A model generated the notes under the pieces. The model made no database searches, was not told the DNA's origin, and saw nothing but the letters and a program-made list of their open reading frames with translations. DNA of 64,000 nt from Ginglymostoma cirratum (Eukaryota): assembly GCA_024137785.1 (NCBI GenBank), contig JAHRHZ010000051.1, positions 12,921,427 to 12,985,426 on the forward strand. The letters are read 5' to 3'. Below, piece by piece: positions 1,203 through 62,300 of this stretch. Numbering within the stretch: position 1 is the first letter of the stretch; the number at the start of each line of letters is the position of its first letter. The translations under genes were made by a program, and so were the position numbers.

Positions 1203-1818
1203 ACAAGGCGTGGGGCTGGATGAACACAGCAGGCCAAGCAGCATCATAGGAGCAGGAAACCTTGATGTTTCGGGCCTAGACCCTTCATTTCTGATGAAGG
1301 GTCTAGGCCCAAAACATCAAGTTTTCCTACTCCTATGATGCTGCTTGGCCTGCTGTGTTCATCCAGCCCCANNNNNNNNNNNNNNNNNNNNNNNNNNNNN
1401 NNNNNNNNNNNNNNNNNNNNNNNNNNNNNNNNNNNNNNNNNNNNNNNNNNNNNNNNNNNNNNNNNNNNNNNNNNNNNNNNNNNNNNNNNNNNNNNNNNNN
1501 NNNNNNNNNNNNNNNNNNNNNNNNNNNNNNNNNNNNNNNNNNNNNNNNNNNNNNNNNNNNNNNNNNNNNNNNNNNNNNNNNNNNNNNNNNNNNNNNNNNN
1601 NNNNNNNNNNNNNNNNNNNNNNNNNNNNNNNNNNNNNNNNNNNNNNNNNNNNNNNNNNNNNNNNNNNNNNNNNNNNNNNNNNNNNNNNNNNNNNNNNNNN
1701 NNNNNNNNNNNNNNNNNNNNNNNNNNNNNNNNNNNNNNNNNNNNNNNNNNNNNNNNNNNNNNNNNNNNNNNGCCTTGTTATCTCGGATTCTCCAGCATCT
1801 GCAGTACCTTTTATCTCT
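1203..1818. mobile_element. Palindromic Penelope-like (family A) terminal mini-insertion, containing an assembly gap
   Basis: Arm 1201-1288 is the reverse complement of 1294-1371 plus 1772-1780. TSD gtatatttctatta at 1189-1202 and 1819-1832. Same sequence as the 3' terminus of the PLE at 43944-44443. Confidence 0.9.
1372..1771. other. Assembly gap (400 N)
   Basis: Run of N. Confidence 1.
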
Positions 1819-4384
1819 GTATATTTCTATTACTTTATTTGAGAAGCTGCATTATGAACTTTGATATTTTTTCATGGTTCTATTTCTGTTAAATGTAATT
1901 AAAATCCTGTATAAGCAGTCAGGAATGAATGAGGTCTTGCTGAGAGTCAAAGGAACCTGAGCTACTTCACCAAAAATTAATCGTTAACTTGCATATTTCA
2001 GGCTTAACCATTATACATTAACCCTATTTGATAAATTCACAAAACAGTATCCTCACGTTGTATGGGTATTATGAAAAGAAATAGAGAAAAACTAAACTGA
2101 AAAACAAAACTAACATTAATTACACATCTCAGTTACTGTTTAAAGAAGATACTAATTGCACTGCAAGTAATGTTAGTGAAAGAAGATCAGATACAATTAA
2201 GCTGCAATACCAGAAGCTGAAGCAATAATGATACACAGATACATAAAACAATAAAATTAATTCTAATTGTTTGATTGAAGAATGCGAAATATGCTTTCCA
2301 AGTTGAACTAATTTATCTTCTTAAATAGAGAGACACAAGAAGTGTGTACAGGTTTTATTTAGTTCATGTTGATAAAAGGAACAACAATAGGAAAAAGTAC
2401 ATTAGCAAACCGTAAGCAAAGATACAATACGGCAAAACTCATGTCGCAAAATTCTTCAGTTCAGTTTGCAGAAGTATCTGTTTTGATTGACACCAATTAA
2501 AACAATTTAACATATGTGTCATAATCGCAAAGGATCAAAACTTCTTTAAAAGATTGCTCTCAAAATTGGATGCAGAAATGTCAGAGGGGGGACAAAACAC
2601 ATTCCCCTCTAAACCCAATCTTAATGTAATAATGATTTTTATTATGTTTGTAATGTTGAGAACCTACATTTTGTAAAAGAAAAATCTACTTCCAACCACT
2701 TCTTCATCTGTTCCATGCCACTTTCCAAGATTTAGCCTTGCTATCTCTTGAAACACCTTTTATAGCACAAATCAATTCATGTCAATTTATGCAGGGGTTT
2801 ATGCAGTTATTCTTTTGAAACATTTTTGGAATTTAAATTAATCACTTAGTCTATAATCCCATCTTCCAGAAAGATATGAAATACACAAACCTGGTACAGT
2901 GTTAAGAAAACTACAGTAGAGTTCTGCAAAAAACATCTCTCTGGAAACTGTCTTGGGTTGAAGATCATAATATATCATAGAAACTGGCCAATAACTGTAA
3001 TCCTTAGGGCTTACTTCAGCAAAAAAAAGTCCCAAGTATTAAGTATGTAAACATCACGTCGTTATCGCCAATCCTGCATTGTTTATTGCTGTCACCAGAC
3101 TCTGAGTTCATGTTGGAAAAGGTGTTTCGGGAGATAGCAGAGGCTAGGGCTTGGAGAGTGGCACAGATGAGGAAATGGGTGGTACATAATCCTTTTTTTA
3201 CACTCTCGACATTGCAGACAAAAGAAAACTCACCATGGCATTATAATTGGTTTGGAGAGAGATATGTTGTTCCCTTTTTAAGCTTAATACATCTACTTTT
3301 GGGAACAATATTTCAAGGAAGTTTCAATATGTTATGAGACAGGGACACACATATTATTTGTTGCATGATTCAATAACTGGGCCAACCTTGGAATATAAAA
3401 CTTAGAAGGAGAAAACACCAGTCAGCCCATCTAATATGCCGTACTTACATTTTATGTTTCTTCACAAATTGAAGCTTAGGCAGCAGTGATATCATCTCAA
3501 TGGTTTTATTTGCTTTCACTCAGATAGAATTCCTTCCATTTTATCTGCACAATATGGAGCAGAACTATACCATTGCATTCTTTGAACAAACAATTAACAT
3601 AGCCATGATGCTTTCTAGAATAATCCCATTCAGAGTCTATTTTGTTAGAAATGCAATGGAATGCATTAGTGAAATGGTTAATACCATTAATAAAGTTCAA
3701 CATATCTTTTATTCCAATATGGTCCTTTGATGAGGTGAGAACTATTACAGTCTTGTAGCTGAGTACAGTCCTGTGTTTCTACAAGCTGTATTTACAAGCT
3801 CAAGAATGAAATTGAGTTGTCTATGCAGAAACAGTAGATCACTTGTAATAGTTTTAAATTATTACATATCAAAATTCAGGCAGTAAGATTGAAGTATATA
3901 TTTGTGCAGTAAGATAAAGTTGCAATTTTACTTAATGTGCGAAAGACAGAAATGACAAAATGTTAAAGGACATTGATCATTGTTTTGGCTTGATGGTTGA
4001 GAAGTTGACAATGTCATAGCTCCTGATTTGATCTGAGCAGTTGGAATAGCATAAAATATTTGGTTCACTATAGTGTCAGTTATTCATTTTTTTATATTCA
4101 TTGAAATTGGTTGAATCTACCATTTGAATTTTGTGACATAGGAACAGAATGAGGCCATTTAGCACCCTGAGTCTTTCAACGAGATTATGGTTTGCAAGGA
4201 TTCCCATTTCCCAGTCCTTGTCCTATAGCCCCTCATATATTTGGTTACCAAGGAAAATAATTTAAAAATGATCAATTGAGCTATCAATATTTCTTTGTAA
4301 TTCTGTTTTGTGATAAAAATAAATGCTAAACTTGGAAGGAATATTATGGTCTTCCAGTTTTAAATAAAATGCCTCCTGGTGGGA

Positions 4385-7020: not shown

Positions 7021-8574
7021 TTAAATGCAGAAAGTGCTGGAAATATTCAGCTGCGATGCCAGCATCTTTAGATGAGAAACAGAGTTAATATTCCAAGCCT
7101 GTGCATCAGAACTGGGGCATGCACCCAGGAAAGGATCACACAAGCTGGGTTGAAAATAGATAGGTCTGGGTGTGGTTGGGTTGAAGCCAGTTTGATAGGT
7201 GTTCATATTACCGACGCCAAGGCTGAACACATTCTGCTGCTCTTCCTGTTAGCTTAAATATAACTAATAACACTCAACATTTCAGTTGCCAGGTTTTACT
7301 CAATGGAAATTTACACAGCTTGGTCCACCAATTAGGAAATTTGTGTTTTTTAGAGTCTTATTCACATTTACATTTTGAATGAAATTTTGAATTCAAATTA
7401 CAAATGAAATGCATATCTTAGATAAATAAACATCTGGGCAAAACCACTATCAATGAATAGTTCCCTACCAACCAGTCACTTCTTTCTAATCTCAACATAA
7501 GTAACTGCCTGAAATTGGAAATGAGAGAGATGAAAATGTGGTTTAAAATTGGATTTAGAATGTCTAAAATTGAGATGCTTCAATGACTAGGTCTAGCACA
7601 TAAAATGCAGCTATGACAAAATGTTTGTGGTTCTCATACGTACACTTTGTTGTACTCAATACTGTTATAATTTAGCTTACACAAAGGAGCATGGGCAAGG
7701 CTGTCTGCTCCTGACTAAATGGACATGCACGGCTGCTCCAAACCACATTACATTGGCATAGATAAACACCTCACTCCAGTACCATTGTACACAATCTCCC
7801 ATTAAACTGCTGGATTTAATAGCTGGGTATACCAAATGCCAACACTGTTAACGTCAGGCATAAAATCCATGCTGGGGTGTTAAATCAACTTTGCAAAGTA
7901 TTTCTGCCAGCTCTTGGCTTAATCATTGAGGTAGGCAAAACACAAATAAAGCAACTATAAAAGGCATGAGATGACCTCAAATTCATTAAGTATTGATGAT
8001 GATAATGATGCCCATTTGAAATAGAATTTCATACCCTCTGCTCCATTAGAAAAGTACTCTCAGACAAATCTTCCTAATGCTGCAAGCTACATATAACAGC
8101 ACTATGATTTGCAAAGCACAGGAAGCTATTATCAATGATTGAAGAGTTTTAGAATTTTTAAGTAATCTCTGATTGCCCATAAATTTATTGTTGTGATGAA
8201 TGTATATTCTATAGCATAATAAGCAGTAGTAACTAATAGGTAACTGAAAGAAATGACAACCTACCAAATAAATTAATTCATGGACAAGAAGTTACCTTCA
8301 GTGAAAAGTCAGAAGAGATGCAATATATGTGAGTAATTCCAAAAGGTGAACACCCAATAGTTTAGATAAGACTGCTTCACCGTACATCTTTACAATCTTC
8401 ATTTTCTTTTCCCCCAGGTTTACTTCTTCCTACTACCCCCTTTCATTATGTGAAAATCTTAGGAAATGTTGGCAAAGCAAATGCAGCCATGTGGAAATTA
8501 GCTCACGTGACCATTTTGTCATTATTGAACTGGCTTATGAAAAGCAATGACTCTTTGAAACCTTGGTAAATGGT

Positions 8575-9071: not shown

Positions 9072-9244
9072 AAGATAAAATCAGAGTTAACGTTTTGGGT
9101 CCGGTGACTCTTCCTCAGAATGGGTCACTGAACCTGAAACGTTAACTGATCTTTTTCTTCACAGATGCTGCCAGACCTGCTGATCTTTTCCAGCAACTTC
9201 TGTTTTTGATCCTGATTTACAGCATCCACAGTCTTTCAGTTTTT
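9072..9244. mobile_element. Penelope-like family B terminus with a short inverted duplication
   Basis: agttaacgttttgggtccggtgactc (9085-9110) is an inverted copy of gggtcactgaacctgaaacgttaact (9122-9147), followed by acagatgctgccagacctgctga...gatttacagcatc. Confidence 0.75.
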
Positions 9245-9271
9245 AGTGTGCATATTGGGGTCATTAAGAAT

Positions 9272-10177
9272 ACAAAATTGATGGTGTAATGGACAGCAAA
9301 GAAGGTTACCTCAGTGTATAACAGGACCTTGTTCAGATGGGCCAATGGGCTGAGGAGTGGCAGACAGAGGTTAATTTTGATAAATGTGAGGTGCTACATT
9401 TTGGAAAGGCAAATCAGATCAGGACTTATACACTTAATGGTAAGGTCCTGGGAAGTGTTGCCAAACAAAAGAGATCTTGGAGGGCAGGTTCATAGCTCCT
9501 TGAATGTGGAGTCACAGTTAGACAGTTTAGTGAAGAAGACGTTTGGTATACTTGCCTTTATCTGTCAGTGCATTGAGAATAGGAGTTGGGAGGATATGTT
9601 ACAGCTGTACAGGATTTTGGTTAGGCTGCCTTTGGAATACTGTGTTCAATTTTGGTCCCCTTGCTATAGGAAAGGCGTTGTGAAACTTGAAAGGATTCAT
9701 AAAAGATATACAAAAATGTTGGCAGGATTGGAGACTTTAATCTGTAGGGAGAGGCTGAGTAGGCTGGGGCTATTTTCCCTGGAGCGTCAGAGGCTGAGGG
9801 ATGACGTTATAGATGTTTATAAAATCATGGGGGTCATGGATAGGATGAACAGTCAAGGTCTTTTCTGCTATGTAAGGGAATCCTAAACTAGCAAGCATAA
9901 GTTTAGGGTGAGAGGGGAAAGATTTAAAAGGGACCTAAAGGGTAACTTTTTCACGCAGAGGGTGGTGCATGCATGGAATGAAGTGCCAGAGGAAGTGATG
10001 GAGCCTGGCACAATTAAAACACTTAAAATGCATCAGGATGGTGTATGGATAGGAAGGATTTAGAGGAATATGAGTCAAATGCTGGCAAATGGGACTAGAT
10101 TTATTTAGGATATCTGGTCAGCATGGATAAGTTGGACCAAAGGGTCTGTTTCCGTGCTGCGCATCTTTATGACTCTA
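9272..10177 (+). mobile_element. CR1 LINE (HER1-like), 5'-truncated: RT C-terminus and 3' UTR
   Basis: ORF 9314-9886 contains LQLYRILVRLPLEYCVQFWSPCYRKGVVKLERIHKRYTKML...ERLSRLGLFSLERQRLRDDVIDVYKIM; ends gggtctgtttccgtgctg...atgactcta. Confidence 0.95.
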
Positions 10178-10744: not shown

Positions 10745-11155
10745 GGGTATAGCAGCAGAATAGTTCTGTTACTGGACTGTTCATCCACAGGCCCGAACTA
10801 ATTATCCAGAGACGTGTGCTTAAATCCCACCACAGCAGCTGGGGAATTTACATTCAGTTAATTACATTAAAAATTGAATTAAAAGGCTAATATCAATAAT
10901 GATAGCCAATCTAACAGATTGTCGTGAAAGCACATCAGGTTCACTAATCTCCTTCAGGGAAGGGCATCTGCCATTCTCTCCAAATGTGGCCTGTATGTGC
11001 AATCAGACTCACAACAATGTGCTAGGCTCAGACCTGTCCTCCGAAAGGAGTGAGCTGTCCACTCAGTTGCATGCAATGAAGTGACTCGCTAAGAGGGACA
11101 GGCAATAAATGCTGATCTTGTTAGAAATGCCTAAACCCCTTGAATCAATAAAAAT
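10745..11155 (+). mobile_element. tRNA-derived SINE with LINE-like tail
   Basis: gttactggact...aaatcccaccacagcagctggggaattt...ggttcactaatctccttcagggaagg...ggcaataaatgctgatcttg; same family as 33432-33790. Confidence 0.75.
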
Positions 11156-12111
11156 GTCAGACTTTGTGCTACACGAGAGCCTGCAGGAGCTGGGTTTGTT
11201 TACAGTAAATATAAGAAAGGTATCTTGTTGAACCACTCAAAATCCAAAACGGTGACATGTTTGATCCTGATGAGACGTAAGCAGTAAAGTTCAGAAGAAA
11301 TGAATGGTGTACATTCTTGCCACAACCATCCACTACTCAAGAACAATAATTTAAAAGTAAAAATATAAATATTTCATCCACAGGGTAATGTTTTGAGAGG
11401 GCAATTGAGACTAATAACAGAAGCAATTTTAGAAGGGAGCTGACAAGGCATTTGGCCAGAATATCAATAGAGGCACAGACATAATGAACTGTACATTCCA
11501 TTTTTGGACTCTGGAACCAGATAAGTAGACTGAAATATGTTTTCCAAACCTTTGTATTCATATTCTTCTTTGTGAAAGTGGGATTTTTTTTTCCATTTAG
11601 ACAGTTAAGGTATCCAAACATTACAGTTAAGATCTCACCGTTGTTGAAATTCTTATTACTGAAAAAATTATTTATGTCAGGTTGGTTTCTCAACTTGATT
11701 CAACAGATTGGCTCCAGTACTTAACTTATTTGGTCCAGCACTTTCAGTATCTCAGTTGAACAAACTGGCATGACACTTCTCAATTAAAATATTTCTGCAG
11801 CTATTGATGAGAAACACATGTCACTCCAACCAACACATCAACATTACTAACAGCTTTATCCATTAGAACATATTGCAGAGTAACAGCTGGAAATCAAAGA
11901 AAAACAATAACAAATTAGAGTGGTATTTGACTCAGCACTTTACACCCTTCTGGCTGCAACGTTGAGTTCAATAACTTCAGATTATAAACAGTTTCATGTT
12001 TTCAGACAGCAATTTGTCATCGACACAACTCCTAGAACCATCTTTTGTTTCTTTATTACCCTATTACCTAAATTACCCATTGCTTTGTGTGATCCAAGGT
12101 GAGAGATTTTT

Positions 12112-12206
12112 CTGATGAAGGGTCTAGGCGCGAAATGTCAAGCTTTCCTGCTCCTATGATGCTGCTTGGCCTGCTGTGTTCATCCAGCTCCACACCTTGT
12201 TATCTA
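12112..12206 (+). mobile_element. 95-bp PLE family A mini-insertion starting at the hammerhead core
   Basis: ctgatgaagggtctaggcgcgaaatgtcaagc...ccttgttatcta, flanked by 12-bp TSD tgagagattttt (12100-12111, 12207-12218). Confidence 0.9.
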
Positions 12207-13239: not shown

Positions 13240-13490
13240 CATTTGCATCACCATCTTTCTTGTTGTTTAATCACTCCTGTCCTCTACTCTCTCACAAAGC
13301 TTCACCTTTGTACTACTTCTCAATTCCAGCCTGTTTTTTCCCACTGTTCTGCACTTTGCCATTAAACTGCTAAATCTCCAACTTCTTCCATTTCTGTCTG
13401 AAGATCATTGGTCTAAAACATTAAGACACCTTCTTTCTCTACAGATGTTGCTCGATCCACAGAGCGTTCTCAGCATTTTCTGATTTTAGT
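13240..13490 (+). mobile_element. Decayed PLE family B 3' end
   Basis: ...ttctttctctacagatgttgctcgatccacagagcgttctcagcattttctgatttt, with a degenerate hammerhead-like segment at ~13390-13425. Confidence 0.55.
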
Positions 13491-14870: not shown

Positions 14871-14949
14871 TGCTTGCCATTCATTCTGATTTAATTGTTT
14901 GCCAAGTCACATAATTATGGTATTTATATTAGAAAGTGCTGAAGGGCAT

Positions 14950-15058
14950 TGGGGCACAGGGGAAGTGTCCCTACTTTTGAACCAGGTGGCCTGGGTTCAA
15001 GTTCCAGCTGCTCCAGAAGTGTATTATAATATCTCTGAACAAGTTGATGAGAAGATAT
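14950..15058 (+). mobile_element. Short tRNA-like SINE head
   Basis: ggggcacaggggaagtgtccctact...gcctgggttcaagttcca (B-box-like GGTTCAAGTTCC). Confidence 0.5.
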
Positions 15059-15214
15059 CCCTGAAAGTGCTGAAGGAGGTTGGAATGTTAAACAAATGCA
15101 TGGGTCCAGCAGAGCAAATTCATTCCACATCATGTGCAAATCTCGTATTCAAAAGAAAACTGATTGAGCAGAACTATTCACTTTTTGAAGAACTTGAGTA
15201 GTGTTGAATATAGT

Positions 15215-15258
15215 GTGTGCCGTTGAAGCTTTTCTCTTGCAACCATCAGGACAGACAC
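15215..15258 (-). ncRNA. Degenerate type-I hammerhead ribozyme motif (PLE family C)
   Basis: Minus strand gtgtctgtc-CTGATGG-ttgcaaga-GAAA-agct-TC-aacggcacac: stem I complementarity, palindromic AGCT stem-III loop, UUC cleavage triplet; core A9 is altered. Confidence 0.6.
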
Positions 15259-15720
15259 AAGAATAGCAAATTTCAAAGGAAGTATGAATTTATATTACAT
15301 GAGAAACAGGGTGTTAATGAAGAATTGCTCCAATGCTTTTGTCCAAATTCAAAAGGCATATTGACCCTCATTGGTTGGGGACTGCTGTGGAGAATGGGCC
15401 AGGGAACAATGCAAAAAACAGAAGTTTGGAGGTCAAAGCTGAAATGCCTGAACAACTTTTTTTCCTGCAGAGAACTGGGCCGTGCATATAAACATTTGTA
15501 GCTTTTAGCAAGCCTTGTTGTAAATCTGGCCAATAATCTTGAATTGGTTATTCATGTGATTCTTGGTACAATCACGATTATTCGGTAAGTGCTGTCCAAT
15601 CACTGAATCTCATTTAATTTTTGACATTATGTTCTGAGTTTTGCAAGCACAGACGACAGTGCAGGTAGTACTCTACACCTTGTAAACAGCCAAAGGGTCA
15701 TGTTATTTTATATGATCCCG
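15215..15720 (-). mobile_element. Penelope-like element family C: GIY-YIG C-terminal region and 3' terminus
   Basis: Minus-strand translation DSVIGQHLPNNRDCTKNHMNNQFKIIGQ...LLKAT...PVLCRKK resembles the SAIxxHL...F.II...LE...P.L segment of PLE GIY-YIG endonucleases; ends in a hammerhead-like motif. Confidence 0.7.
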
Positions 15721-16535: not shown

Positions 16536-16745
16536 GAGATAGTAGGAACTGCCGATGCTGGAGAACCTGAGATAACAAGGTGTGGAGCTGGATGAACACG
16601 GCAGGCCAAGCAGCACCAGAGGAGCAGGAAAGCTGACATTTCGGGCCTAGACCCTTCTTCAGAAAAAGGCCTGAAACGTCAGCTTTCCTGCTCCTCTGGT
16701 GCTGCTTGGCCTGCCGTGTTCATCCAGCTCTACGCCTTGTTTTAT
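16536..16745. mobile_element. Palindromic PLE family A mini-insertion
   Basis: Arms ~16574-16649 and 16667-16741 are inverted. Imperfect TSD cagggaatgtt (16522-16532) / cagggaaaatgtt (16746-16758). Confidence 0.9.
16631..16665 (-). ncRNA. Minimal type-I hammerhead core (PLE family A)
   Basis: Minus strand ttt-CTGAAGA-a-GGGTCTAGGCCC-GAAA-tg-TC-agct: CUGANGA and GAAA boxes, stem II and GUC triplet. Stem I is weak. Confidence 0.6.
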
Positions 16746-17612
16746 CAGGGAAAATGTTTTGACTGCATTAGGAGCCACATTAACAAGAAGTCAGTTACAA
16801 GTATAACAGTACTGTATAACAGCTTTTAGTATCTTGAGCCCTTTAATGTAGTTAAATAGCTGAAAGCAGTTCACAGGAATTTTACAAAGAAATAGTTGAT
16901 AAAATAATCAGTTGTTAGGGAAGAAACCACAAGCTTGTTGAAAATATGCGCTTAGGAACTATCTAAAAGGAAGAAAGAGAGAGATATAAAGAAATACAGG
17001 GAAAGGAAAATTCCAGTGTTTTAGATAACTAGTGGTATTAATGCCAATGGTGCAATAATTAACACCGGGGATACTCAATATTCCAAGCAGTTGGAGAAAG
17101 GATGAATCTGCTCTCCTCTTTTCAATCTCACTATTTGGCCACAACAAAGATATAAATTATTTTTAGTCTGAGACAATACCTCCCATCAATTAAAATCCAG
17201 TTAATTAATGCCTATTGCAAGAGTAAGAAGTCGATACATTTTCTTGACTGAAAGAAAGTGCAATTTTATTATCTACTAACTCTGAGGAAAGAAATGAAGA
17301 CATAACTTAAAGGATAGTCTCCAGTGCAAAAAAGATGATGAGGAATACACAGTTTAAAGTTCATGGGGCATCCTTGAAGCATACATTTTTAACCTCCCAT
17401 TTTTAGTTGGTGTCATGAATCATCAGCAATAGTGAATGTTTTATTACCATTATGACATCAAGAACCAGAATTGGAGAAGTTTAAATATCCTGAAGGGTCG
17501 CAGTGATGAAGGAAAATACAGAGAAACGGGCAGTAGAGGCAATTGGGGGATTTGAAAAGACTGAATAGAGCCATTTATTAACTGGAAGCAAATGCAGGTC
17601 AATGAGCACAGT

Positions 17613-17928
17613 TTTTTTTTATTTCTTCATTGGAATGTGTGTGTCACTGGCGGAGCCTAAATTTAATGCCCACCCCTAATCAGACTGGCTTGACAGGGCC
17701 ATTTCAGAGGGCAGTTAAGAGTCAACCACATTGCAGTGGATCTGGAATCACAAGTAGGCCAGACTGGGTAAAGATGGCAGATTGCCTTCCCTAAAGGACA
17801 TTAGTGAATAAGAGGTTTTTGAAACAATGGTTACATCATTGCCATTAGGCTAGCTTTTAATCACAGATTTTCATTTATTCAAATTTCAACTTCTGCCATG
17901 GTGGGGTTCGAACCCATGCTCCCAAAGC
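17613..17928 (-). mobile_element. tRNA-derived SINE (same family as 33432-33790)
   Basis: agagtcaaccacattgcagtggatctggaatcacaagtaggccagactgggtaaagatggcagatt...ccatggtggggttcgaaccc. Confidence 0.8.
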
Positions 17929-27719: not shown

Positions 27720-27856
27720 TGTGGGTCATCCTACAGCACATGGACTGCAGCGGTTCAAGATGACAGCTCACCACCACCTTCTCAAGGACAACTAGGGTCA
27801 AGCAACAAATACTGGCCAGCCAGTGACGCCCATATCCCACAAGAGATTCAAAAAAC
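27720..27856 (+). mobile_element. LINE 3' end (same family as 6226-7020)
   Basis: catggactgcagcggttcaagatgacagctcaccaccaccttctcaaggacaactaggg...gccagtgacgcccatatcccacaagagattcaaaaaa. Confidence 0.8.
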
Positions 27857-27872
27857 ATGAGGAGCTGGCCAT

Positions 27873-28049
27873 TAAAAACTCAATCAAGTTAGTGAGACCC
27901 AATTTCCCATGCACAAAGCCATGTTGACTATTCCTAATCAGTCCTTGCCTTTCCAAATATATATCCTTCAGGATTCCCTCCAACTTGTCCACCACTGATG
28001 TCAAGCCCACCAGTCTATAGTTCCCTGGCTTTTCCTTACTACCTTTCAT
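27873..28049 (-). mobile_element. CR1 RT internal fragment
   Basis: KGSKEKPGNYRLVGLTSVVDKLEGILKD...IRNSQHGFVHGKLGLTNLIEF. Confidence 0.9.
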
Positions 28050-28082
28050 ACATAGAACATAGATCAGTACAGATGAGGTGCA

Positions 28083-28599
28083 GAGATAACAAGGTGTGGA
28101 GCTGGATGAAGACAGCAGGCCAAGCAGCATCATAGGTGCAGGAAAGCTTGACGTNNNNNNNNNNNNNNNNNNNNNNNNNNNNNNNNNNNNNNNNNNNNNN
28201 NNNNNNNNNNNNNNNNNNNNNNNNNNNNNNNNNNNNNNNNNNNNNNNNNNNNNNNNNNNNNNNNNNNNNNNNNNNNNNNNNNNNNNNNNNNNNNNNNNNN
28301 NNNNNNNNNNNNNNNNNNNNNNNNNNNNNNNNNNNNNNNNNNNNNNNNNNNNNNNNNNNNNNNNNNNNNNNNNNNNNNNNNNNNNNNNNNNNNNNNNNNN
28401 NNNNNNNNNNNNNNNNNNNNNNNNNNNNNNNNNNNNNNNNNNNNNNNNNNNNNNNNNNNNNNNNNNNNNNNNNNNNNNNNNNNNNNNNNNNNNNNNNNNN
28501 NNNNNNNNNNNNNNNNNNNNNNNNNNNNNNNNNNNNNNNNNNNNNNNNNNNNNNCCTTGTTATGTCAGATTCTCCAGCATCTGCAGTACCTATTATCTC
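28083..28599. mobile_element. Palindromic PLE family A mini-insertion, containing an assembly gap
   Basis: gagataacaagg... on the left and ...ccttgttatgtcagattctccagcatctgcagtacctattatctc on the right. TSD agatgaggtgca at 28071-28082 and 28600-28611. Confidence 0.88.
28155..28554. other. Assembly gap (400 N)
   Basis: Run of N. Confidence 1.
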
Positions 28600-30546: not shown

Positions 30547-32210
<1,664 letters not shown>

Positions 32211-33431: not shown

Positions 33432-33790
33432 GGGGAGGCGAAGGCCTAGTGGTATTATCACTGGACTGTTAATCCAGAGACCTTGATAATGTTGTGGGCA
33501 CCTGGGTTTGAATCCCGCCATGGCAGAGGGTGGAATTTCGATTCAATAAGTGTCTGGAATTAAGAATCTGATGATGACTGTGAATCTGTTGTTAATTGTC
33601 AGGAAAAACCCAGCTGGTTCACAAATGTCGTTTAGGGAAGGAAACTGCCATCCTTAACTGGTCTGGACTACACGTGACTCTAGACACACAGCAATGTGGT
33701 TGACTCTAAACTGCCCTCTGGATAAATTAGGGACCGGCGGCGAATGCTGCCTAGCCAGTGATACCCTCATCCTGTGAATGAACAAAAAAT
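33432..33790 (+). mobile_element. tRNA-derived SINE, near full length
   Basis: A-box-like ggcctagtggt, B-box gggtttgaatccc, central ggttcacaaatgtcgtttagggaaggaaactgccatcctt, LINE-like tail gccagtgataccctcatcctgtgaatgaacaaaaaa. Confidence 0.85.
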
Positions 33791-35964: not shown

Positions 35965-36440
35965 AAGGAAGACTTGTATTTATTCAGCATTTTTTCAACA
36001 TCTGAGGAGACAGTGTAGTAAATTTAATTGCTTCAGAGACAGTAGGAACTGCAGATGCCGGAGAATCTGAGATAACAAGGTGTTGTCTTGTTGGAAACAT
36101 GGCATCCAGTTGACACCCAGCAAGCTTCCACAAATAGTAATGTGATAATGACCAGCTAATCTGTTTTAGGGAATGTTTCTTCAGGGATAAGAATTGACTA
36201 GGATTCCGTGGAGAACTGCCCTGCTCTTCATTTAGTGCCACAGGACCTTTTAAATCTACCTCAGAGGGCAAACAGGACCTTGGTTTCATGCCTCATTCAA
36301 AAAAACAGCACCTCAGACAGTGCAGCTGTCCATCAGTGTGCCACTGATTTGTCAGACTGTGTTGTGTTCTTCAGACTCTGGAGTAGGACTTCATCCTACA
36401 ATTTTTTGAGTCGTGGTGAGAATACTACTAAGTGAACCAT
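35965..36440 (-). mobile_element. Deu-domain SINE interrupted by a PLE tail fragment
   Basis: gtgataatgaccagctaatctgtttt...gagaactgccctgctcttc...gtgccacaggacctttt; PLE piece at 36032-36083. Confidence 0.75.
36032..36083 (-). mobile_element. PLE family A extreme 3' tail fragment
   Basis: ttcagagacagtaggaactgcagatgccggagaatctgagataacaaggtgt. Confidence 0.85.
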
Positions 36441-37514: not shown

Positions 37515-37880
37515 AGGAGGCACAGTGTTTATGGTACTGGATTAGTAATTCAGAAGTCCAGGTCAATCCTTTGGGGACATTGGTTAAATTCCACCACAGT
37601 AGCTAGTGAAAATTAAATTCAATTCATAAATCTGGAATTGAAAATTAATCTTGATAATGTTTACCATTAAATTACAACTAATTGTTGTAAAAACCTATTT
37701 AGTTCACTAATGTTCTTTTGGAAATGGCAACTGACCTACTTGTTGCTTCAGATCCACTGCAAAGTGATTGACTCTTAAGGGCCCTCTGAATGTCCCAGCA
37801 AGAATCTAGTTTAAGGGCAATTAAGAATGGACAACAAAATGATGGCCTTGTCTGTGACACCCATATCACATGAAAAAATA
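37515..37880 (+). mobile_element. tRNA-derived SINE (33432 family)
   Basis: gtactggattagtaattcaga...aaattccaccacagtagct...gttcactaatgttctt...gggcaattaagaatggacaacaaa. Confidence 0.75.
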
Positions 37881-40309: not shown

Positions 40310-40697
40310 ATAATCGTTACACTATTGGACCAATAATCCAGAGGTCGAGTAACAATTTGGAGACGTCATTTCCAATCCTGTCGCGACACCTCAAGAGATT
40401 ATGTTCTGTTAATCAGAATCTGGAATAATGCTTGCCACGCGACTACAGGATTGTCAAAAATGGACTTGATTCACAAACATCCTTCAGGGAAGGGAATCTG
40501 CCTTTTTTAGCTGGATTTGAGTGAGTAATCCAGACCCACATCAACATGATTGACACTTCACAGCTCTCTGAAACAGCCTAGCAAGGCATTTAGCTGTATT
40601 TAATGCTGCTTCCAACTACATGTTCAAAAGTAATTGAGAATGGGTAATAAATATTGGCCTCTCGAGCAATATCTTCATTCCATGAACAAATAAAAAT
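40310..40697 (+). mobile_element. tRNA-derived SINE (33432 family), decayed
   Basis: ggaccaataatccagagg...ccttcagggaagggaatctgcc...gggtaataaatattggcc...ccatgaacaaataaaaa. Confidence 0.7.
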
Positions 40698-43943: not shown

Positions 43944-44443
43944 GAGATAGTAGGAACTGTCGATGCTGGAGAATCTGAGATAACAAGATGTAGAGCTGGA
44001 TGAACACAGCAGGCCAAGCAGCATCAGAAGAGCAGGAAAGCTTATGTTTCGGGTCTGGACCCTTCTTTAGAAATGGGAGAGGGGAAGGGGATTCTTAACT
44101 AAATAGGCAGAAAGGGGGAGGTGGATAGAAGATGGATAAAGGAGAAGATAGGTGGAGAGGAGACAGACAGGTCAAGGAGGTGGGGTTGGAGCCAGTAAAG
44201 GTGAGTGTAGGTGGGGAGTTAGGGAGGGGATAGGTCGGTCCAGGGAGGACGGACAGGTCAAGGACGCGGGATGAGGCCAGTAGATAGGAGATGGGGGTGG
44301 GGCTTGAGGTGGGAGGAGGGGATAGTTGGGAGGACAGGTTAGGGAGGTGGGTACAAGCTGGGCTGGTTTTGGGATGCAGTCGGGGGAGGGGAGATTTTGA
44401 AGCTTGTGAAGTCAACATTGATACCATTGGGCTGCAGGGTTCC
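43944..44443 (-). mobile_element. Penelope-like element family A: ORF C-terminus and 3' terminal region
   Basis: Minus strand GTLQPNGINVDFTSFKIS (end of the GIY-YIG domain), a pyrimidine-rich 3' UTR, a mutated hammerhead core (44043-44072) and the terminus ...cctactatctc. Confidence 0.9.
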
Positions 44444-44856
44444 TCACCCTTAACAACTTCTCCTTCCATTCCTTCCACTTCCTACAGAAAAGGAGGTGGC
44501 TATGGTACCCGCATGGGCCCAAGCTATGCCTGCCTCTTTGTAGGATACGTGGAACAATCCCTGGCCCTATCCCCAACCTCTTCCTCCGTTATATCAATGA
44601 CTGTATCAGCGCCGCCTTGTGCTCCCACGAGGATCTCGAACAGTTCATCCGCTTCACTAACAACTTCCACCCCAACCTTAAGTTCACCTGGACCATCTCC
44701 GATACCTCTCTCTCCTTCCTGGACCTCTCTATTTCCATCTCTGGCAACCACCTGGAAACCGATATCTATTTCAAGCCTACCATCTCCCACAGTTACCTAG
44801 GATACACCTCCTCCCACCCAACTTCCTGCAAAAATGCCATCCCCTATTCCCAATTC
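44441..44856 (+). mobile_element. Penelope-like RT fragment, inverted relative to its 3' end
   Basis: LTLNNFSF...GTRMGPSYACLFVGYVEQSL...LFLRYIND (YIDD mutated)...FHPNLKFTWTISDTSLSFLDLSISISGNHLETDIYFKPT.SHSYL.YTSSHP.SCKNAIPYSQF. Confidence 0.92.
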
Positions 44857-44913: not shown

Positions 44914-45020
44914 CAGTTTCCAACAAGAGGCCACTGACCTGAAACACTAACTCCGTTTTGCTGTCTCTCCAAAGGTACTGCCTGACCTGCTGAGCATTTC
45001 CAGAATGTTCTGTTCTTGCA
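44914..45020 (+). mobile_element. Decayed PLE family B terminus
   Basis: cactgacctgaaacactaactcc...gcctgacctgctgagcatttccagaatgttctg. Confidence 0.6.
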
Positions 45021-47802: not shown

Positions 47803-50542
47803 TGACTTTAACACCTGAACATTTTTCTCTGTTGCTGTGTTCTTGTGGAACTACCCTCTGTTGCCTTCTGCTGGCTGTAACACTGCTGAAAGGTAACCTG
47901 TCCCACTGTTGGCTTTCTCTTCGTTCTGGTGGTAGTTAAATAGGTAGCATTCTCCAGTCAAGTATTAGCACACACAAGACCTTGAACAATCATGCCAGAT
48001 AATTCACTCATCTTTGAGTACCTCACCTAAAAGCCCTGGTCAACACAGTTAACTCCCCTCTCATTGACTGTACTCTTTAACTAAGACAGTCCAGCCGCGT
48101 CAGTGAGGCTTTGGTCATTAGACCAAAGTGGAAAGAACACTTTGAAACAATACCGGCTATTGTTTGATTCCTAGTTCACTGAAATTTCCATTTAAGTCAA
48201 TATGCTGGTTATAATATCGATTACAGACTATACACCAGCCAGTTGTTAGTTCAACATATTCTGCAAGTGGAAAATCGAAGAAATAAAACCAAGATAGATT
48301 TTGCCACCCTTTTAATCTCTTACACATTGTGGAGTGCAGAGTCATCATATCATTTTGGACAACTTCTTTATGCTCCAGCTCACACTTTGAATACAACCCA
48401 CCATTATCATTATTTCCCCAACTGTTTGTGCTTCAGATATTGGATGCCAATGATCCTTTCACAACACTTTTAACACTTACTAGTTCAGTGAATGCCTTGT
48501 ATCTCCTTGCTCAAAAAGTAGCCCTATGTTACCAATTACCTGATATACCTGAGGAACATGTAGATGTGTTCCTGCCATTCATGGCTACAGTTGTGTTGTG
48601 CTAGGGGCAAATCTGTGAGTTGAACTTATGTCCTGTCCCCTGTACAGTTTTGGTTCATTTGTGGAAAACAAAAGAATGGATTTGAGCAAGGTGCTTGTGA
48701 CAGTCAAATGTTTTGGTTACATGTATTTACAATACAGATAATGACATAAATAAACTAAACAATAGCCGGTGATATCATGTTCTCTAACTCTTACTGCCAT
48801 ATTCTCAAACAGATACAATGCGCTGTGTCCCCCTGTTCAGACTGTCCAACTTAAATAGTTCAATTACCAGTTTAATGAGTAGTGCATAACATAGATGGAA
48901 CTGCAGCAAATACAAAAAGTACTTGTCATATAAATGTTTTCCCCATTAGATACTCTAAAAAGCAGATAGAAACTCAATCCCTATACAACCAATTAAAGTT
49001 ATTAAAATAGCTATTCACTTTTATTGTAGAGTGACTGTTAAAATTCAGTATTATCACAGAAAAGCATAAATCTGCTGGAGCGAAAGTGCTGAGAAGTGAA
49101 TTTTGGCTGTCTGATAATAATCACTTTTTGTGTATTAACTTAATTGATGTTAAATATTATGTAGTATTACTTTATCAGACATTAATATAAAATCTGACTA
49201 AACATTTTTTAAGAAAAAATGCTCTCTTTGAATTTAAACATGCTCTAAAACAGTTACGATCGTTGATTGTGAAGAATCACTGATGTTTATATTCGTTTGC
49301 AAGTCACTATAAAGTTTTAAAGCCATGATATTGAGAAAAATACTATGAGCAGATGTTAACTTATGAATGCATAGGCCTCAAGAAAACTGTCTTATTGTGC
49401 TTCACATTCACCTCCTCCCTTTCAATCTACTTCTCCTCTTCCTCCTTAATCCTCTCCTCCCTATTCCCCCATCTTTTTTGTTCCCCTGCTCCCTTTCCCT
49501 CCATCCTATTCCTTTTCAATTGAACTTTCTTGATTACTGTAGACCAGAAATGTTGAGTACACAGGGAAACCAATTAAAGAGCGCTGTAAGTTTCAACATG
49601 CTTCATTTTGAAATCTGTAGTGATTGCAAACAGAGGCTGAATTCCACGTATATGCAAAACAGAGCAGTCTGACCTCCAAGCCAAGCATATTTGAAATTTA
49701 AAATTCATTTAAAAATGCAATTAACTTTTTAATAATCTTAGATTGCAACAAGTTATATACACTTTTTTACATAATTTGTAAACCCATAAAGATCAGAAGT
49801 ATGAATATCGCAAACTTTAAAATAAAATTATAAAACATTGGCATTAAAGGCAGCCAGATTTAGTGGAAGATTCTAGAGTTGTAGGTTATCACAGAGACGA
49901 GCTGTTGATGCAGCAAGAGAGTAATATTGGAACCCTCAAGAAATAACAGAGCAGAGTCCAGACCAGGACTTACATGCACATGCTACTGTTCTGGGATGTA
50001 GAACATGGTGATCAAAGCAGGAGATCAGACAAAAAGCATGTTATTGACCCATAGAGTGTGGGTCAGAACCTATGGGAACCAAGGGTGCTCAGAATCTGGA
50101 CTGGGACCTACCAAAAAACACACCCTTTGGACAGCTTAGGTAAATTATAAACAATCCAGAAGCTTTTAACCAACTCCACAAAATGTTGCTTTCCAATCAA
50201 CTCAGTGAATTAGGGACCAACTTGAAGAATGGAAACTAATTTTCAGAGAAACTTTGAAGAAAGCTTGAAAACTCTCAACCGACCCAGAAATGCTCAATAA
50301 ATGCAAAGAGATGTTAAAACAACTCAGAGACTTCCGAACAACTCGGGAAAATTTCTATAACAGTTTGCAGTTTTAAGAATGTAAAGTTGCCAGATGATGG
50401 AATACTTATGCATGCCAATGTTTATAAAATGTCTGTCTCCCAAGCCCAGGTTATGAATTGATTCATCTGATTGGTGAGGCTAAAATGGTTGCTTTCATGA
50501 GTTATGCCTGCTATTACAGTAGTTGAGGTGAATAACATAGAT

Positions 50543-50695
50543 AAGGAAACTGCCATCCTTACCTGGTCTGGCCTACATATGACTCCAGACCCACAGTAAT
50601 GTGGTTGACTCTAAATTGCCCTCTGGGCAATTAGGGATGGGCAATAAATGCTGCCTGGTCAGCAACACCCACGTCCTGTGAATGGATAAAAAAAA
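50543..50695 (+). mobile_element. 3' half of the 33432-family SINE
   Basis: aaggaaactgccatccttacctggtctggcctacatatgactccagacccacag...gggcaattagggatgggcaataaatgctg. Confidence 0.85.
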
Positions 50696-54424: not shown

Positions 54425-55600
54425 ATAACGAAAGCCAGAAAATGCTGGATATACTTGGCAGATCAGGCAGCATCAGTGGAGAGAGAAACAAAGGACTGGC
54501 TAGTACACTGGGCTGGCGAGGCAAGGTGTTCCCTGCACTGCAGCAAACATTTCAGAGCCAAGCATACCTCTGTTTAGCCAGCTTGCTCCACTTACATTTT
54601 TCCAGGCTCCACAAATATCCCTATCATTAATAATCTAGTTCATCTATGTAGAAGACATGGCTGTAGTGTTTACAAATGTTTCCAGTCAGACATGTCAGGT
54701 GGTTAATAGAACAAAGAGAGAAGGCCTGTGATTGGGTGAAAGGCACGAAAGACTAAAGGGCAAAAGGGAGAATAGTGCAGGACAAAAGGATATGGTCCTG
54801 GGGCAGCATCTAAAAGAGGTAAAGATGGCAACAGCAGAATTACTACAGACAACTCCTGTCTGAAACAAAAAGAAACGAAAGATGACACGAGATATGCCCG
54901 GAAATTATTGAACTTAGCAGTGAGTCCAGAAGGTTATAGAGGGCCTAATTGAAAGGTGAAATTTGGTTCCTTGAATTCCCAGTAAATTTTATTGGAATTT
55001 TGGAGGAGGCTGAGGACAGAGAGCTCAGAGTGTGGAAACGACAGAGTATTAGAAGGATAAGCAAGGAGAAGTGGAAATTACACTCACAGACAAAGTATTT
55101 GCAACCTGGGAGAGTGGGATAGGAGGAGGTTAAAGGACTTGTGTTGCATCTCGAGTGCTGGAATGGCCAGATCGAGTAGGAAGGGGATGGTTTTTTGGTG
55201 GTGGTTGAAGAATTGACAGCAGTATTACAGAGACAACAGTCCCTTTGTAATGTTGAAATTGAAAGCGAGGGGATGTTTCAAGTGATGTTACTCTGAAGAT
55301 GGCAGAGGACGGTCCACTGAACATGGATGTTAGAAATATTTCTGAGAGGGAGGGGTAATAGTGACAGTAGAAGTGTGGGAAATTAATACTATGGAGGGCC
55401 TTGTCAACCACAACTATGGGGGAGGGGCAGGCGGGTTCCCCAAAGCAAAAAAAGGGTGGCATTCATGAAGTGCTGGCTTGAGGGTTGTGGCATCAGAACA
55501 GATGATAGTGGTGCAGAAACTGAGAGTATGGAATGGTGCCCCAACACGAAGAGGGATGTGAGGATGCATTGGTAGCCTTTGCCACAGAAACAATAAGTCA
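54425..55600 (-). mobile_element. Decayed Penelope-like element (family B) 3' part
   Basis: Terminus agaaaatgctggatatacttggcagatcaggcagcatc (54438-54475). Minus-strand KEPNFTFQLGPL*PSGLTAKFNNF (~54902-54972) resembles the PLE C-terminus E.HLIFRLGTL.P.GLN.EFNNF. Confidence 0.65.
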
Positions 55601-56450: not shown

Positions 56451-57900
56451 ACAGGTAAGGCAGATGAACTCAGGGCATGGATGGGAACACGGATCTGGGA
56501 TATCATAGCTATTACAGAAACATGGCTGAGGGAGGGACAGGACTGGCAGCTCAATGTTCCATGGTACAGCTGCTATATCACAGCAGTACTTGGAGAGGAT
56601 ATTTCGGAAGGATCAGTCAGAGAAACTAAATGGTAGAAATTAGAAATAAAAAAGGGATGATCGCATTGATGAGATTGTACTATAAGTCCCCCAATAGTCA
56701 GAGGGATATCAAGGAGCAAATATGTAGGGCAATCACAGAAAGCTGTAAGAATAATAGGGTTGTAATAGTAGGGGATTTTACCTTCCCAGGCATACATAGA
56801 TTGGAACTGCCATAGTGTTAAGGGCTTGGATAGAGAGGAATTTGTTAAGCGTGTTCAGGAAAATGTTTTTAATCAATATGTAGATGACCTTAATAAGGAA
56901 GGGGCAAAACTCGACCTCCTCTTGGAAAATAAGGCAGGATAAGTGACTGAGGTATCAGTCAGGTAGCCCTTTGGGACCAGTGACCATAATTCTATTAGCT
57001 TTAAAATAGTTATGGAAAAGGATAGGTCCAGTCCACAAGTTAAATTTCTAAATTGGAGCAAAGCTGATTTTAATGGTATTAGACAAGAACTTTCAAAAAT
57101 TGACTGGGGGAGGTTGTTCACAGGTAAAGGAATATCTGGCAAGTAGAATGTTTTCAAAAACAAGATGAGAGTTCAGGACCAGCTTGTTCCTGTTAGTGTG
57201 AAAGGCAAGGCTGGCAAGAGTAGGGAACACTGGATGACGCTCAATATTGAGGCTCTAATCAAGAAAAAGAAGGGGACGTATGTCAGTTTTATGCAGCTGG
57301 GATCAATTGAATCCCACGAGGAGTATAAGGATGTAAGAATACACTTAGGGGGATCTCAGGATGGCAAAAATGAGATAGCTTTGGTAGATAAGGTAAAGGA
57401 GAATCCAAAGAGATTCTACAAAGGCCTTAAGGGCTAAAGAGTAACTAAGGAGAGAACTGGGACCCTTAAAGAACAACAATAATGTGTGGAGCCACAGGAT
57501 ATAGGTGAGATCCCAAACAAATATTTTTTGTCAGTATTTACCGTGGAGAAAAACATGGAAGCTAAGAAGGAACTTGGGGAAATAAACGGTGATGTCTTAA
57601 AAAGAGTCCACATTACAGTAAAGGAGGCTCTGGAGTTCTTAAAATGCATAAATATAGATAAATCCCCTTGAACTGATCAAGTGTATCCCAGGACGTTATG
57701 GGAAGTGAGGGAGGAAATCGCAGGAACCCAGCGGAGAAATTTGAATCATTGACAGTCATGAGTAAGGTGCCGGAAGACTGGAGAATGGCTGATGTTGTGC
57801 CATTACTTAAGAAAAGCTGCAAGGAAAAGCCAGGGAACTATAGACCGGTGAGCCTAATGTCAGTGGTGGGTGAGCTGTTGGAGGGAATTCTGAGAGACAG
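56451..57900 (+). mobile_element. CR1 LINE ORF2: APE endonuclease and RT N-terminus, frameshifted
   Basis: DIIAITETWLREGQDWQLNVP; LYYKSPNS...VVIVGDFTFP; LDLLL; SDHNSISFKI; VPEDWRMADVVPLLKKSCKEKPGNYRPVSLMSVVGELLEGILRD. Confidence 0.95.
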
Positions 57901-57904
57901 CTTA

Positions 57905-58489: not shown

Positions 58490-58625
58490 CATGTTTTTGC
58501 TGTTACCATGTACCTGCATCCAACAAATCTTTCACCTAGAGCCAAAGAGAAGTTATGGCTGGAAATGCTGCTCACAGTAAGCAAAATCAGCACCAAGGCC
58601 TGCCTGGTCACCCGGTGCCCCTCCT
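58490..58625 (+). mobile_element. Possible Myb/SANT-like remnant of the Harbinger second gene
   Basis: RAKEKLWLEMLLTVSKISTKACLVTRC, resembling the trihelix W.E.A..VS..S...R...QC pattern, divergent from the transposase remnant. Confidence 0.4.
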
Positions 58626-60699: not shown

Positions 60700-62300
60700 G
60701 GAACAAGAAGAGAGAAAGATGAACTCTGTTATAGTAAAATATCGCATTATATTCAGTGTTTCAAGACGATACACGCAAAAAACACTTCTCGCTGTATTTT
60801 CATATAAATCTAAATCTAAATCTGTCTGCAGATTCTGGTAAAAGCTATGTTCCACAAGAGAACATGGGACTAAAATGTGCAAGAAATCTAAGTGCCTGAA
60901 AAAGCCGAAATGCAACACAATGCTCCACAGCAGTATGTTAACAGCCAACAAGGGAACAATGTCAAAGGCATTTCCAAACTTCAAACCCTGGCATACAAAT
61001 ATGTCAACAAAGTTCAAAAGGTAACTGCAATGTCATACAGTGTGCGAGCCCCAGACAATCAGTACATGTATTCAATTTGACAACAACATGGACATCGTCA
61101 GAAAAGCTGATGCTTTTACCATCATTCAAGTGATAAACCTGGAAAGGAATGAGAAACATGCACCAGATGCCAGGATTGACACTGGTACAAGTGCAAATAT
61201 CACCCCCTTTGCATACTCAGTAATGCACTTTGGAAACAGGCACAATGTTGTACAGTCCACACATAACAAATTAATTGCTTACCAAGATTCTGACATCCAG
61301 TACATTAACATTACCCACCTTAAATATCAATATGGCTTCTTGACTTGGACATCTGAAATGGTTTCCATTGTTGATATAGCAGGACTTTCTATCAGTGGTT
61401 TACCAGCATGCACAGACCCATGCTATTATAGTCAATGAGGAAAAGAACACATAAATTCCAACACCACAGGTTTCTGACCACAACATTGAGTTCATCTATT
61501 ATCTATTCAGAAACGCGTCATTTCTGAAGAAGGGTCCAGACCCGAAGCGTCAGCTTTCCTGCTCCTCTGATGCTGCTTGGCCTGCTGTGTTCATCCAGCT
61601 CTACACCTTGTTATCTCAGATTCTCCAGCATCAGCAGTTCCTACTATCTCTGAAACTAGATGTGCAGTTGGTTAGTTCCAATGCTGTCGGCCAACTTCTA
61701 AGTCCTGCTAAATAACAAAGGGATTCCTCCAGACCCACACGTGGATATTGTCATATACAAATTAATTGATAGTTTCAACATCAATGTCATCTCATTGGCT
61801 TTGTTCACACCCAAGCAGAGCTGAGTAATGAGCTATGTCTCATGAGGTCCAACTGCAACAGCTCAAGAAGGTAATTATCAGTAGGTGGGCTGAACACATT
61901 CAGCAGGTAGCCCCTGAGCAAACATATTCTTTCTGGTCATTCACAGATTAACTAGGACTGTCGAGGGATGTAATTTTCAAAGGCAAACAAGTGGTCATTT
62001 CACAAGGTCGACAGTGAAATATGCTTGATCATTTGCCCGTTGGTCATATAGGGAAAGACAAAAAGCCAAGACATTGGCACATAATTCCAACTATTAGCCC
62101 AACATCATTAAGGACATTGATGCAGTCACGCAAAACATGTCATTCTATCAAATTCAACAGCTGAAAGAATCTTTCAGCCCACACAAAATTCTTTCTGAGC
62201 TATGGCGCAAGATTGCCACTGATATTTTCTGTGTCAAAAGATACAATTAAATTCTGGTGAAAGACTATTCCACTAAATTCCCTTTTGTGAGACAAATCAA
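60700..62300 (+). mobile_element. Gypsy/Ty3 LTR retrotransposon internal remnant
   Basis: Protease motif RIDTGTSANI (~61170-61200); integrase-like GHIGKD...PNIIKDID and LWRKIATDIF...ILVKDYSTKFPFVR (~62040-62295); many stops and frameshifts. Confidence 0.75.
61521..61656 (+). mobile_element. PLE family A mini-insertion nested in the Gypsy remnant
   Basis: tttctgaagaagggtccagacccgaagcgtcagc...ccttgttatctcagattctccagcatcagcagttcctactatctc. Confidence 0.9.

Follow-up and report, generated by a model that had tools for sequence, protein, structure and literature searches.

The hammerhead-like motifs scattered through the window, by which we mean the whole 64,000-nucleotide stretch of Ginglymostoma cirratum DNA analysed here, are probably minimal type I cores lying in the pseudo-LTRs (pLTRs) of Penelope-like elements (PLEs), Neptune-type for families A and B and Poseidon-type for family C. 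The copies of 100-135 bp would then be dead run-off cDNAs of the leader RNA, with stem I as the predicted 5′ end of this RNA.

The motifs are of a kind known in PLE pLTRs since 2014, the minimal type I hammerhead, whose stem III is palindromic (ACGU in both A and B, AAGCUU in C), as the earlier note had recognized from their sequence. The conserved core (C3-A9, G12-A15.1, U16.1 and H17) is the majority state in all eight A/B subfamilies, and the family C majority also has it once CpG decay is read back. Stem II, of 4 bp in A and 5 bp in B, has an extra A after A9 in both families and is closed by G10.1-C11.1; in family C it has 2 bp and no extra base, C11.1 being deduced from a decayed CpG (9 C, 33 T, n = 52). 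Stem I comprises 4 bp in B and 5 bp with a likely extension in C. The 2-3 bp formerly attributed to family A fits its largest subfamily, which has 2 bp, but not two less diverged subfamilies with 3-4 bp. The first pair of stem I is U-A in A/B and C-G in older A-like copies and in C, and the third is U-G in A2 and G-C in B. Across families, then, the catalytic boxes are constant while the stems vary yet still pair, as had been anticipated, a comparison drawn from family majorities and not from a formal covariation statistic. On this sequence evidence, the master lineages preserved the core while their stems changed.

Every motif listed earlier was re-found at its given place, the position of each core being that of its first base, C3. 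The statement that most copies are damaged also holds, the strict descriptor being passed by just one listed core, at 16662. The features of the window are as follows.

1201..1819, family A insertion, head-to-head: a short arm, 1201-1286 (-), and from 1286 onward a long (+) arm whose core, at 1291 (+), has G12A and a broken palindrome; the long arm enters an N gap at 1372-1771; tail end at 1773-1819
9072..9245, family B pair, head-to-head: first arm 9072-9120 (-), whose core at 9118 (-) has G12A; second arm 9122-9245 (+), beginning at stem II, without the first box and with the full tail
12109..12205 (+), family A solo short copy: begins 3 nt ahead of core 12112 (+; boxes intact, mismatch in stem II) and terminates at the short 3′ site; 12-nt flanking duplication
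13398..13487 (+), decayed B-like copy: tail match at E=0.003
15189..15313 (-), pLTR of family C, with a TATA box (15294), an initiator-like A (15264), a core at 15249 that has A9G and a broken stem II, and a cut predicted after 15225 (initiator-like A and cut counted from the sequence)
15440..15690 (-), approximate limits: decayed C-terminal piece of the putatively Poseidon-type GIY-YIG endonuclease of family C
16536..16748, family A pair, head-to-head: the long arm, 16536-16665 (-), beginning 3 nt ahead of core 16662 (-; passes the strict descriptor); short arm 16667-16748 (+)
28083..28599, family A head-to-head insertion: centre, including the core region, inside an N gap at 28155-28554
36035..36083 (-), family A tail-only fragment without core
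43944..44443 (-), 3′ end of a family A insertion: C-terminus of the endonuclease, then the 3′ UTR, core at 44070 (-; G5A) and tail, with a mutated TATA-like patch at 44105
44445..44856 (+), inverted RT fragment, part of the 43944..44443 family A insertion
44918..45018 (+), approximate limits: decayed B-like copy, separate from the adjoining family A insertion
61519..61651 (+), family A solo copy: begins 5 nt ahead of core 61524 (+; A15.1G); full tail

Not listed before were the inverted partner arms 1201-1286 and 16667-16748, the family A insertion with its core region inside the N gap 28155-28554, the tail-only piece 36035-36083 and two weak B-like tails (7028-7088, 54436-54493). Identical 12-nt stretches flank the 1201..1819 insertion, consistent with a target-site duplication. 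The window copies are either solo or head-to-head (inverted); tandem head-to-tail hammerhead units, the criterion for retrozymes, were found in none of them, and one tandem pair occurs elsewhere (L031). A Pfam search of seven window fragments matched the LRAT gene only.

The motif is part of the pLTR of PLEs carrying a reverse transcriptase (RT) and a GIY-YIG endonuclease. Linkage to RT/endonuclease sequence was seen at 16 of the 18 family A loci listed among 19 non-self ones, 19 of 25 family B loci and 16 of 20 family C loci. In truncated copies of all three families the pLTR follows the endonuclease, and where an ORF end is attached in the window (44443 and ~15610) the motif lies on the sense strand, 3′ of the endonuclease C-terminus, as first described. 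The 3′-end location given at that time is nevertheless incomplete: in 12 of 24 near-full-length non-self A loci the pLTR runs directly into the ORF, with the motif just 5′ of it, and one of these 12 starts at -3. An in-frame ATG is present at +46, 18 nt past the predicted cut, in 10 of 10 A loci tested, and the frame opened by it stays open beyond the next Met in seven. For family B, no full-length pLTR-ORF junction was found in 8 extended loci.

By alignment, A and B are sister Neptune-type families and not independent ones, because their ends are 70% identical over ~125 nt and their RT/endonuclease pieces roughly 45-65% identical; of the three independent families initially claimed, C does stand apart. 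Both A and B have a CX4CxxC before the endonuclease, matching the CX2-5CxxC linker between RT and endonuclease in the Neptune clade (PMC8557442). Pfam gave a weak RVT_1 match on the A/B RT (E=7e-4). The majority translation of family C (20 loci) contains a domain resembling GIY-YIG; the short stretch that precedes it lacks a CxxC linker, and the RT was not recovered. This family is a separate, old lineage, which from its motifs may be of Poseidon type, in the Penelope/Poseidon clade. A and B are young families and very abundant, with 177 A arms and 103 B arms per Mb.

The earlier note had suggested scans with Rfam models or a motif descriptor. A minimal-hammerhead descriptor (stem II of at least 4 bp, stem I of at least 2 bp) produced 41 matches in 880,408 readable bases of the same genome (117 stretches, the window included) and none in each of 10 Markov shuffles, so that the motifs are not due to chance; the loosest setting produced 55 matches versus 0-2 in shuffles. 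Many other 10-kb stretches consist of N throughout and did not enlarge this sample. The Rfam 15 covariance scan returned no hammerhead match up to E=10 either in the window or on three of the best-preserved copies. Its miRNA-family matches arise from the inverted arms and were set aside.

Concerning the state of the inserted copies, all core bases are kept in 52 of 76 A copies, 31 of which also have stem II and a perfect palindrome, and the core is intact in 8 of 31 B copies. Core and tail have diverged alike in B (5.8% vs 6.0%), and the difference in A (2.2% vs 3.8%) is marginal (p=0.04, uncorrected for composition). There is no clear selection on copies after insertion, and they are probably inert. 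Upon co-folding of two molecules, a natural B copy formed a double hammerhead. The minimum-energy folds of both A copies examined are in an inactive register, the first core box being paired to the strand of the cut site; folding of a family C copy did not yield the hammerhead either. This register and the 2-bp stem I of the largest subfamily are the weak points of family A for a ribozyme model. Copies starting within 1 nt of the predicted cut numbered 2 of 158 in A and 2 of 91 in B (expected, 3.25 and 2.75); since the upper 95% limits are 4.5% and 7.7%, a footprint of a few percent is still compatible with these counts. Where contigs have loose ends at the A cut position, hammerhead sequence from farther upstream is still attached, and the cause is a subfamily indel rather than cleavage.

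About a third of the A and B copies begin right at the motif, for which reason we place the start of the element RNA, with good likelihood, at this boundary. The 5′ starts fall at -6..0 relative to the core in 53 of 158 A copies (28 of them at -3) and 25 of 91 B copies, versus 4 and 1 in the 54 positions farther upstream, a pile-up with p of 1e-21 (A) and 3e-7 (B) relative to the downstream rate. The most frequent start, -3, is one base after the predicted initiator A. Public runs, of which all 18 considered consist of assembled contigs from which RNA ends cannot be read, contained loose family A ends at -3 in 3 of 4 runs, one from another organism, and family B strand-switch joints at -5..-3 in 4 of 4. 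A TATA-like box precedes an initiator-like A near stem I by 29-31 nt in all three families (31, 29 and 30 nt in A, B and C); this pattern, chosen after inspection of the sequences and including a weak variant of the box in A, was matched by 12, 25 and 49 of 5000 shuffles. Such a layout is not universal, since the D. virilis promoter is TATA-less, with a start 46 nt before an intron (PMC2377424). Family C copies are old, and the few recovered, by chance, start at scattered positions. An explanation of the B start by splicing, with the CAG of stem I as acceptor, was rejected: most such copies retain the G or AG, family A has no AG there, and the listed B contig joints lack such a skip.

The 3′ side shows two preferred ends, ~33 nt apart. 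Head-to-head pairs join a short to a long 3′ end in 11 of 24 cases in A and 12 of 21 in B, and two long ends in 0 of 24 and 1 of 21; flanking duplications of 7-15 nt accompany 8 of 28 A and 6 of 23 B copies. In the cycle that we propose, RNA polymerase II would start at -4 relative to the core in A and B and at -15 in C. The element RT, primed on nicked DNA at either of two tail sites, would copy the uncleaved RNA up to its 5′ end and stop there; because it would often act on both target strands, head-to-head pairs would result. Longer copies may derive from read-through RNA of partial tandems, and the predicted ribozyme would probably process tandem transcripts by slow, dimer-only or protein-dependent cleavage.

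A bolder version of this cycle can be put forward, although it is less likely than not. A PLE promoter would place the RNA 5′ bases in stem I in two clades, the 5′ ribozyme would cap the message, and several hundred thousand short inserts would be strong-stop-like cDNAs, the RT beginning ~100-130 nt inside the RNA and running off its 5′ end; long copies would then need an RT jump to the repeated RNA end. If true, PLEs would have a strand-transfer step of LTR-like kind, and a single mechanism would account for pLTR, tail and head-to-head pairs.

The fixed 5′ start could instead reflect RT stalling or template switching on long read-through RNA, at a point set by the folded hammerhead or by an upstream pyrimidine tract. 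Most head-to-head junctions do involve the motif start, with no upstream arm in 35 of 49 pairs in A and 32 of 44 in B (bait loci included), a C-rich tract is found immediately upstream in A, and tandem read-through RNA is the usual model in the accessible text of PMC11167929. An RT moving 3′ to 5′ would however reach stem II first, yet starts cluster past the entire core, and the upstream tracts differ between A and B whereas offset and TATA spacing are identical, so we regard stalling as rather unlikely. The abundance of A and B arms, the flanking duplications seen in some copies and the retrozymes of PLE origin reported, one chondrichthyan genome included, in the available part of 10.64898/2026.07.22.740005 would all suit a separate, non-autonomous retrozyme-like mini-element, itself copied. 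Such an origin of the 100-135 bp pieces is very unlikely, considering that they hold no sequence beyond the pLTR, share subfamilies with the long copies, lack the TATA box, are seldom tandem and have junctions that vary by copy.

We further consider it highly improbable that the dispersed cores are active ribozymes cutting host transcripts often enough to matter, an effect that the earlier note had raised. The many A copies with a complete core and the abundance of family A in contigs from runs presumed to be of RNA speak for it, but the core is kept in few B copies, it has decayed much like the tail, and copies beginning at the cut are not in excess. Among published relatives, as far as the accessible texts report, monomers are inactive and dimers weak (PMC4209133), and the anole motif is protein-dependent, with RNA ends absent at its cut site (PMC11167929); cleavage was seen in 1 of 9 Xenopus dimers.

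The preferred reading, run-off copying of a leader RNA that starts at stem I, can be set beside known systems. Minimal hammerheads occur in metazoan PLE pLTRs, including the fish Xena, Poseidon and Neptune (Cervera and De la Pena 2014, PMC4209133). As described in the accessible text of that study, they share with the present motifs the type I topology, the CUGANGA and GAAA boxes, the G10.1-C11.1 pair, a short stem I, a palindromic 15.2-16.2, an extra base before stem II (here in A and B) and thousands of truncated solo copies; stem II has 4-5 bp (A, B) or 2 bp (C) here versus 7-8 bp in its Schistosoma families. Sharks are not among the hosts named in that text, and its supplements may list one. 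The Anolis carolinensis Poseidon element, for which an internal RT start and an uncleaved template were described in vitro (Frangieh et al. 2024, PMC11167929), resembles ours, in the sections available, by a hammerhead at the pLTR-ORF junction, a tail set by two RT start sites, extension of both target strands, an uncleaved RNA template and the absence of ends at the cut site. Its ORF starts at stem II, whereas the first in-frame ATG in A is 18 nt past the cut, and a clustering of 5′ ends at stem I, as seen here, is not described in those sections.

Similarly, Penelope pLTRs of Adineta vaga (Arkhipova et al. 2013, PMC3846280) contain a TATA box, an initiator-like motif and the first codons, and occur as inverted head-to-head and solo pLTRs with a one-sided tail. 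The accessible text attributes the inversions to self-priming on an antisense template and the solo pLTRs to recombination or deletion, and does not tie the start site to a ribozyme. Non-LTR retrozymes (Li et al. 2026, 10.64898/2026.07.22.740005) are, in the part available, likewise pLTR-derived, with a type I hammerhead and one chondrichthyan genome, but are defined by tandem hammerhead repeats, unlike the solo or head-to-head window copies.

As a source of host RNA cutting the present finding carries little weight. To the known cases this genome adds large, young families, A and B, that make it possible to count 5′ and 3′ ends as well as promoter motifs. If transcription does start at stem I, the PLE replication cycle can be put to the test.

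All the minimal hammerhead motifs listed in the earlier note were found at their window sites. Position zero was set at C3, the first core base, from which offsets were counted for all copies, and predicted cleavage would create a new 5′ end at +28 (family A) or +30 (family B). A strict descriptor, demanding both boxes, stem II, a palindromic stem III and H17, recovered a single listed window copy, 16662(-), which bears out the earlier remark that most window copies are damaged. With stem II of at least 4 bp and stem I of at least 2 bp, the descriptor yielded 41 matches in 880,408 readable bases of a genome sample that is not strictly random (the window plus 116 ten-kb stretches, from round coordinates or next to readable ones, many filled by N), versus none in each of 10 shuffled sequences. 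An Rfam scan of the window and of three of the best-preserved copies missed the minimal motifs.

To characterize the carrier elements, loci were gathered with family-specific baits. The reverse transcriptase (RT) fragment at 44445 gave 19 further family A loci, and 16 of the 18 with rows shown presented RT, a CX4CxxC linker, a GIY-YIG-type endonuclease, about 370 nt, and then the motif and tail. Upstream sequence of family B gave 25 loci, 19 with an endonuclease C-terminus on the same strand; these pieces share roughly 45-65% identity with those of A, and the B and A ends align at 70% identity. Since the CX4CxxC-type linker marks Neptune-type Penelope-like elements (PLEs; PMC8557442), its presence in both assigns A and B to this type. 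The endonuclease piece of family C gave 20 loci, 16 with the C promoter or motif downstream; its majority translation is a GIY-YIG-like domain preceded by a short stretch without the Neptune linker. By its motifs, C is tentatively assigned to the Poseidon type. The carriers therefore form two lineages rather than the three independent families proposed earlier.

A second family A bait, the N-terminal part of the ORF, gave 24 further loci. In 12 of them the pseudo-LTR (pLTR) stops at +126..128 and passes directly into the element body; one of these begins at -3. In all ten pLTR-body loci tested, the RT ORF shares its frame with an ATG at +46, and in seven this frame stays open beyond the next Met. 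These pLTR-to-ORF junctions thus make the motif a pLTR feature, which heads a complete element and closes truncated ones, as in the anole element (PMC11167929). The 3′-end placement claimed earlier describes the truncated copies and is only part of the picture. A partial tandem at a locus outside the window (L031:227-513) carries two A pLTRs separated by 28 nt of element body, a natural dimer arrangement.

Family A 3′ ends cluster at about +93..96 and +126..128, an interval that is the known PLE tail. For 5′ ends, we counted copies from the genome sample and bait-locus flanks, bait matches excluded, that were at least 84% identical, reached +70 and had clean flanks. Starts at -6..0 were found in 53/158 A copies (28 at -3), versus 4 in -60..-7, and in 25/91 B copies, versus 1 (p = 1e-21 and 3e-7). 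No excess was seen at the predicted cut (2/158 A, 2/91 B). Public contigs, whose ends are DNA junctions and not RNA ends, showed loose A ends at -3 in 3/4 runs and B strand-switch joints at -5..-3 in 4/4. Most head-to-head pairs consist of a long arm and a shorter one. At 177 arms per Mb for A and 103 for B, each family would have, if the sample is typical, several hundred thousand arms genome-wide. The two N gaps in the window, each of 400 nt (1372-1771 and 28155-28554), lie inside A head-to-head insertions, and 31/146 A matches in the sample adjoin an N run or edge; A head-to-head hairpins may disrupt assembly.

Family majorities place a TATA-like box upstream of an initiator-like adenine; the two are 31 (A), 29 (B) or 30 (C) nt apart, and the adenine lies at -4, -4 and -15, respectively. 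This pattern, picked post hoc, recurred in 12, 25 and 49 of 5000 shuffles; C also has two upstream CCAAT boxes. TATA and initiator also occur in rotifer pLTRs (PMC3846280), whereas the D. virilis promoter is TATA-less (PMC2377424). At about +30 to +52, B carries a splice-acceptor-like pyrimidine tract and CAG directly 5′ of the ATG common with A, whose frame stops after 16 codons in most B subfamilies; no spliced joint was among those listed from public contigs.

Most likely, the pLTR promoter would begin the RNA at stem I, a putative start site of which we found no report in literature on pLTRs with TATA, strong-stop or template switch. RT would then most likely begin at either of two tail sites and copy uncleaved RNA up to its 5′ end, in a presumed run-off; copying on one or both target strands would produce short solo and head-to-head copies, and read-through of partial tandems the long ones.

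Cleavage of any kind by the motifs is putative. Upon folding, a natural B copy forms a double hammerhead, two A copies take inactive registers, and one C copy gave no hammerhead. PLE hammerheads are already published for fish, coelacanth, frog and reptiles, with inactive monomers and weak dimers (PMC4209133); our searches found no account of those of sharks, and its supplementary data or related work may cover them. In the anole element the motif is protein-dependent, with no RNA ends at the cut site (PMC11167929), and 1/9 Xenopus dimers were cleaved (10.64898/2026.07.22.740005). The earlier suggestion that dispersed cores could cut host transcripts is therefore unsupported. No motif copy lies in the one recognised host ORF of the window, listed here with the other features.

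30547-31443, +, single ORF of 298 aa carrying an LRAT domain (PF04970, E=1.4e-9), presumably an LRATD/FAM84-type gene
31460-31623, 41-bp tandem repeat directly after this ORF
10956-11044, 17703-17790, 33633-33789, 37731-37790, 40529-40570 and 50538-50693, separate family of short dispersed repeats, probably a SINE or LINE 3′ end
14945-15015, weak tRNA-like match (E=1.4)
9290-9886, 27800-28050 and 57677-57870, ORF fragments that we take to resemble CR1-type LINE RT

Two other groups of loci lie elsewhere in the genome. A fourth hammerhead family (L284, L183, L050, L045 and others; 14 copies), without a match in the window, has a 6-7 bp stem II, an additional U after A9 and a self-complementary 4-bp stem I. 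A fifth (L178, L270, L225, L303 and others; 16 copies) has an AGCU palindrome, stems of 4 bp and AATAAA immediately past the cut site; its long copies carry a TATA box about 39 nt upstream of the core.

Inserted copies decay: the core is intact in 52/76 A and 8/31 B copies spanning it, and core, stem II and perfect palindrome together in 31 and 2. Core and tail mismatch rates differed in A, at 2.2% versus 3.8% (p=0.04 with no correction for composition), and were 5.8% versus 6.0% for B. At the family level, clustering of 277 A/B copies gave eight subfamilies with an identical core. Stem II has 4 bp in A, topped by U-A or U-G; in B, stem II has 5 bp and stem I 4 bp. The 2-3 bp stem I ascribed earlier to A fits its largest subfamily (2 bp, 102 copies) and one of two less diverged subfamilies (3 bp, 34 copies), not the other (4 bp, 23 copies); older A-like copies have C-G, not U-A, as first stem I pair. 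In C (52 copies), reading back CpG decay gives stems of 5 bp (I, likely with a bulged extension) and 2 bp (II), and a palindrome of 6 nt. The two further families from outside the window retain this core on entirely different yet pairing stems. Across family majorities the catalytic core is constant while stems change but pair, which is the trace that selection on master elements would be expected to leave.
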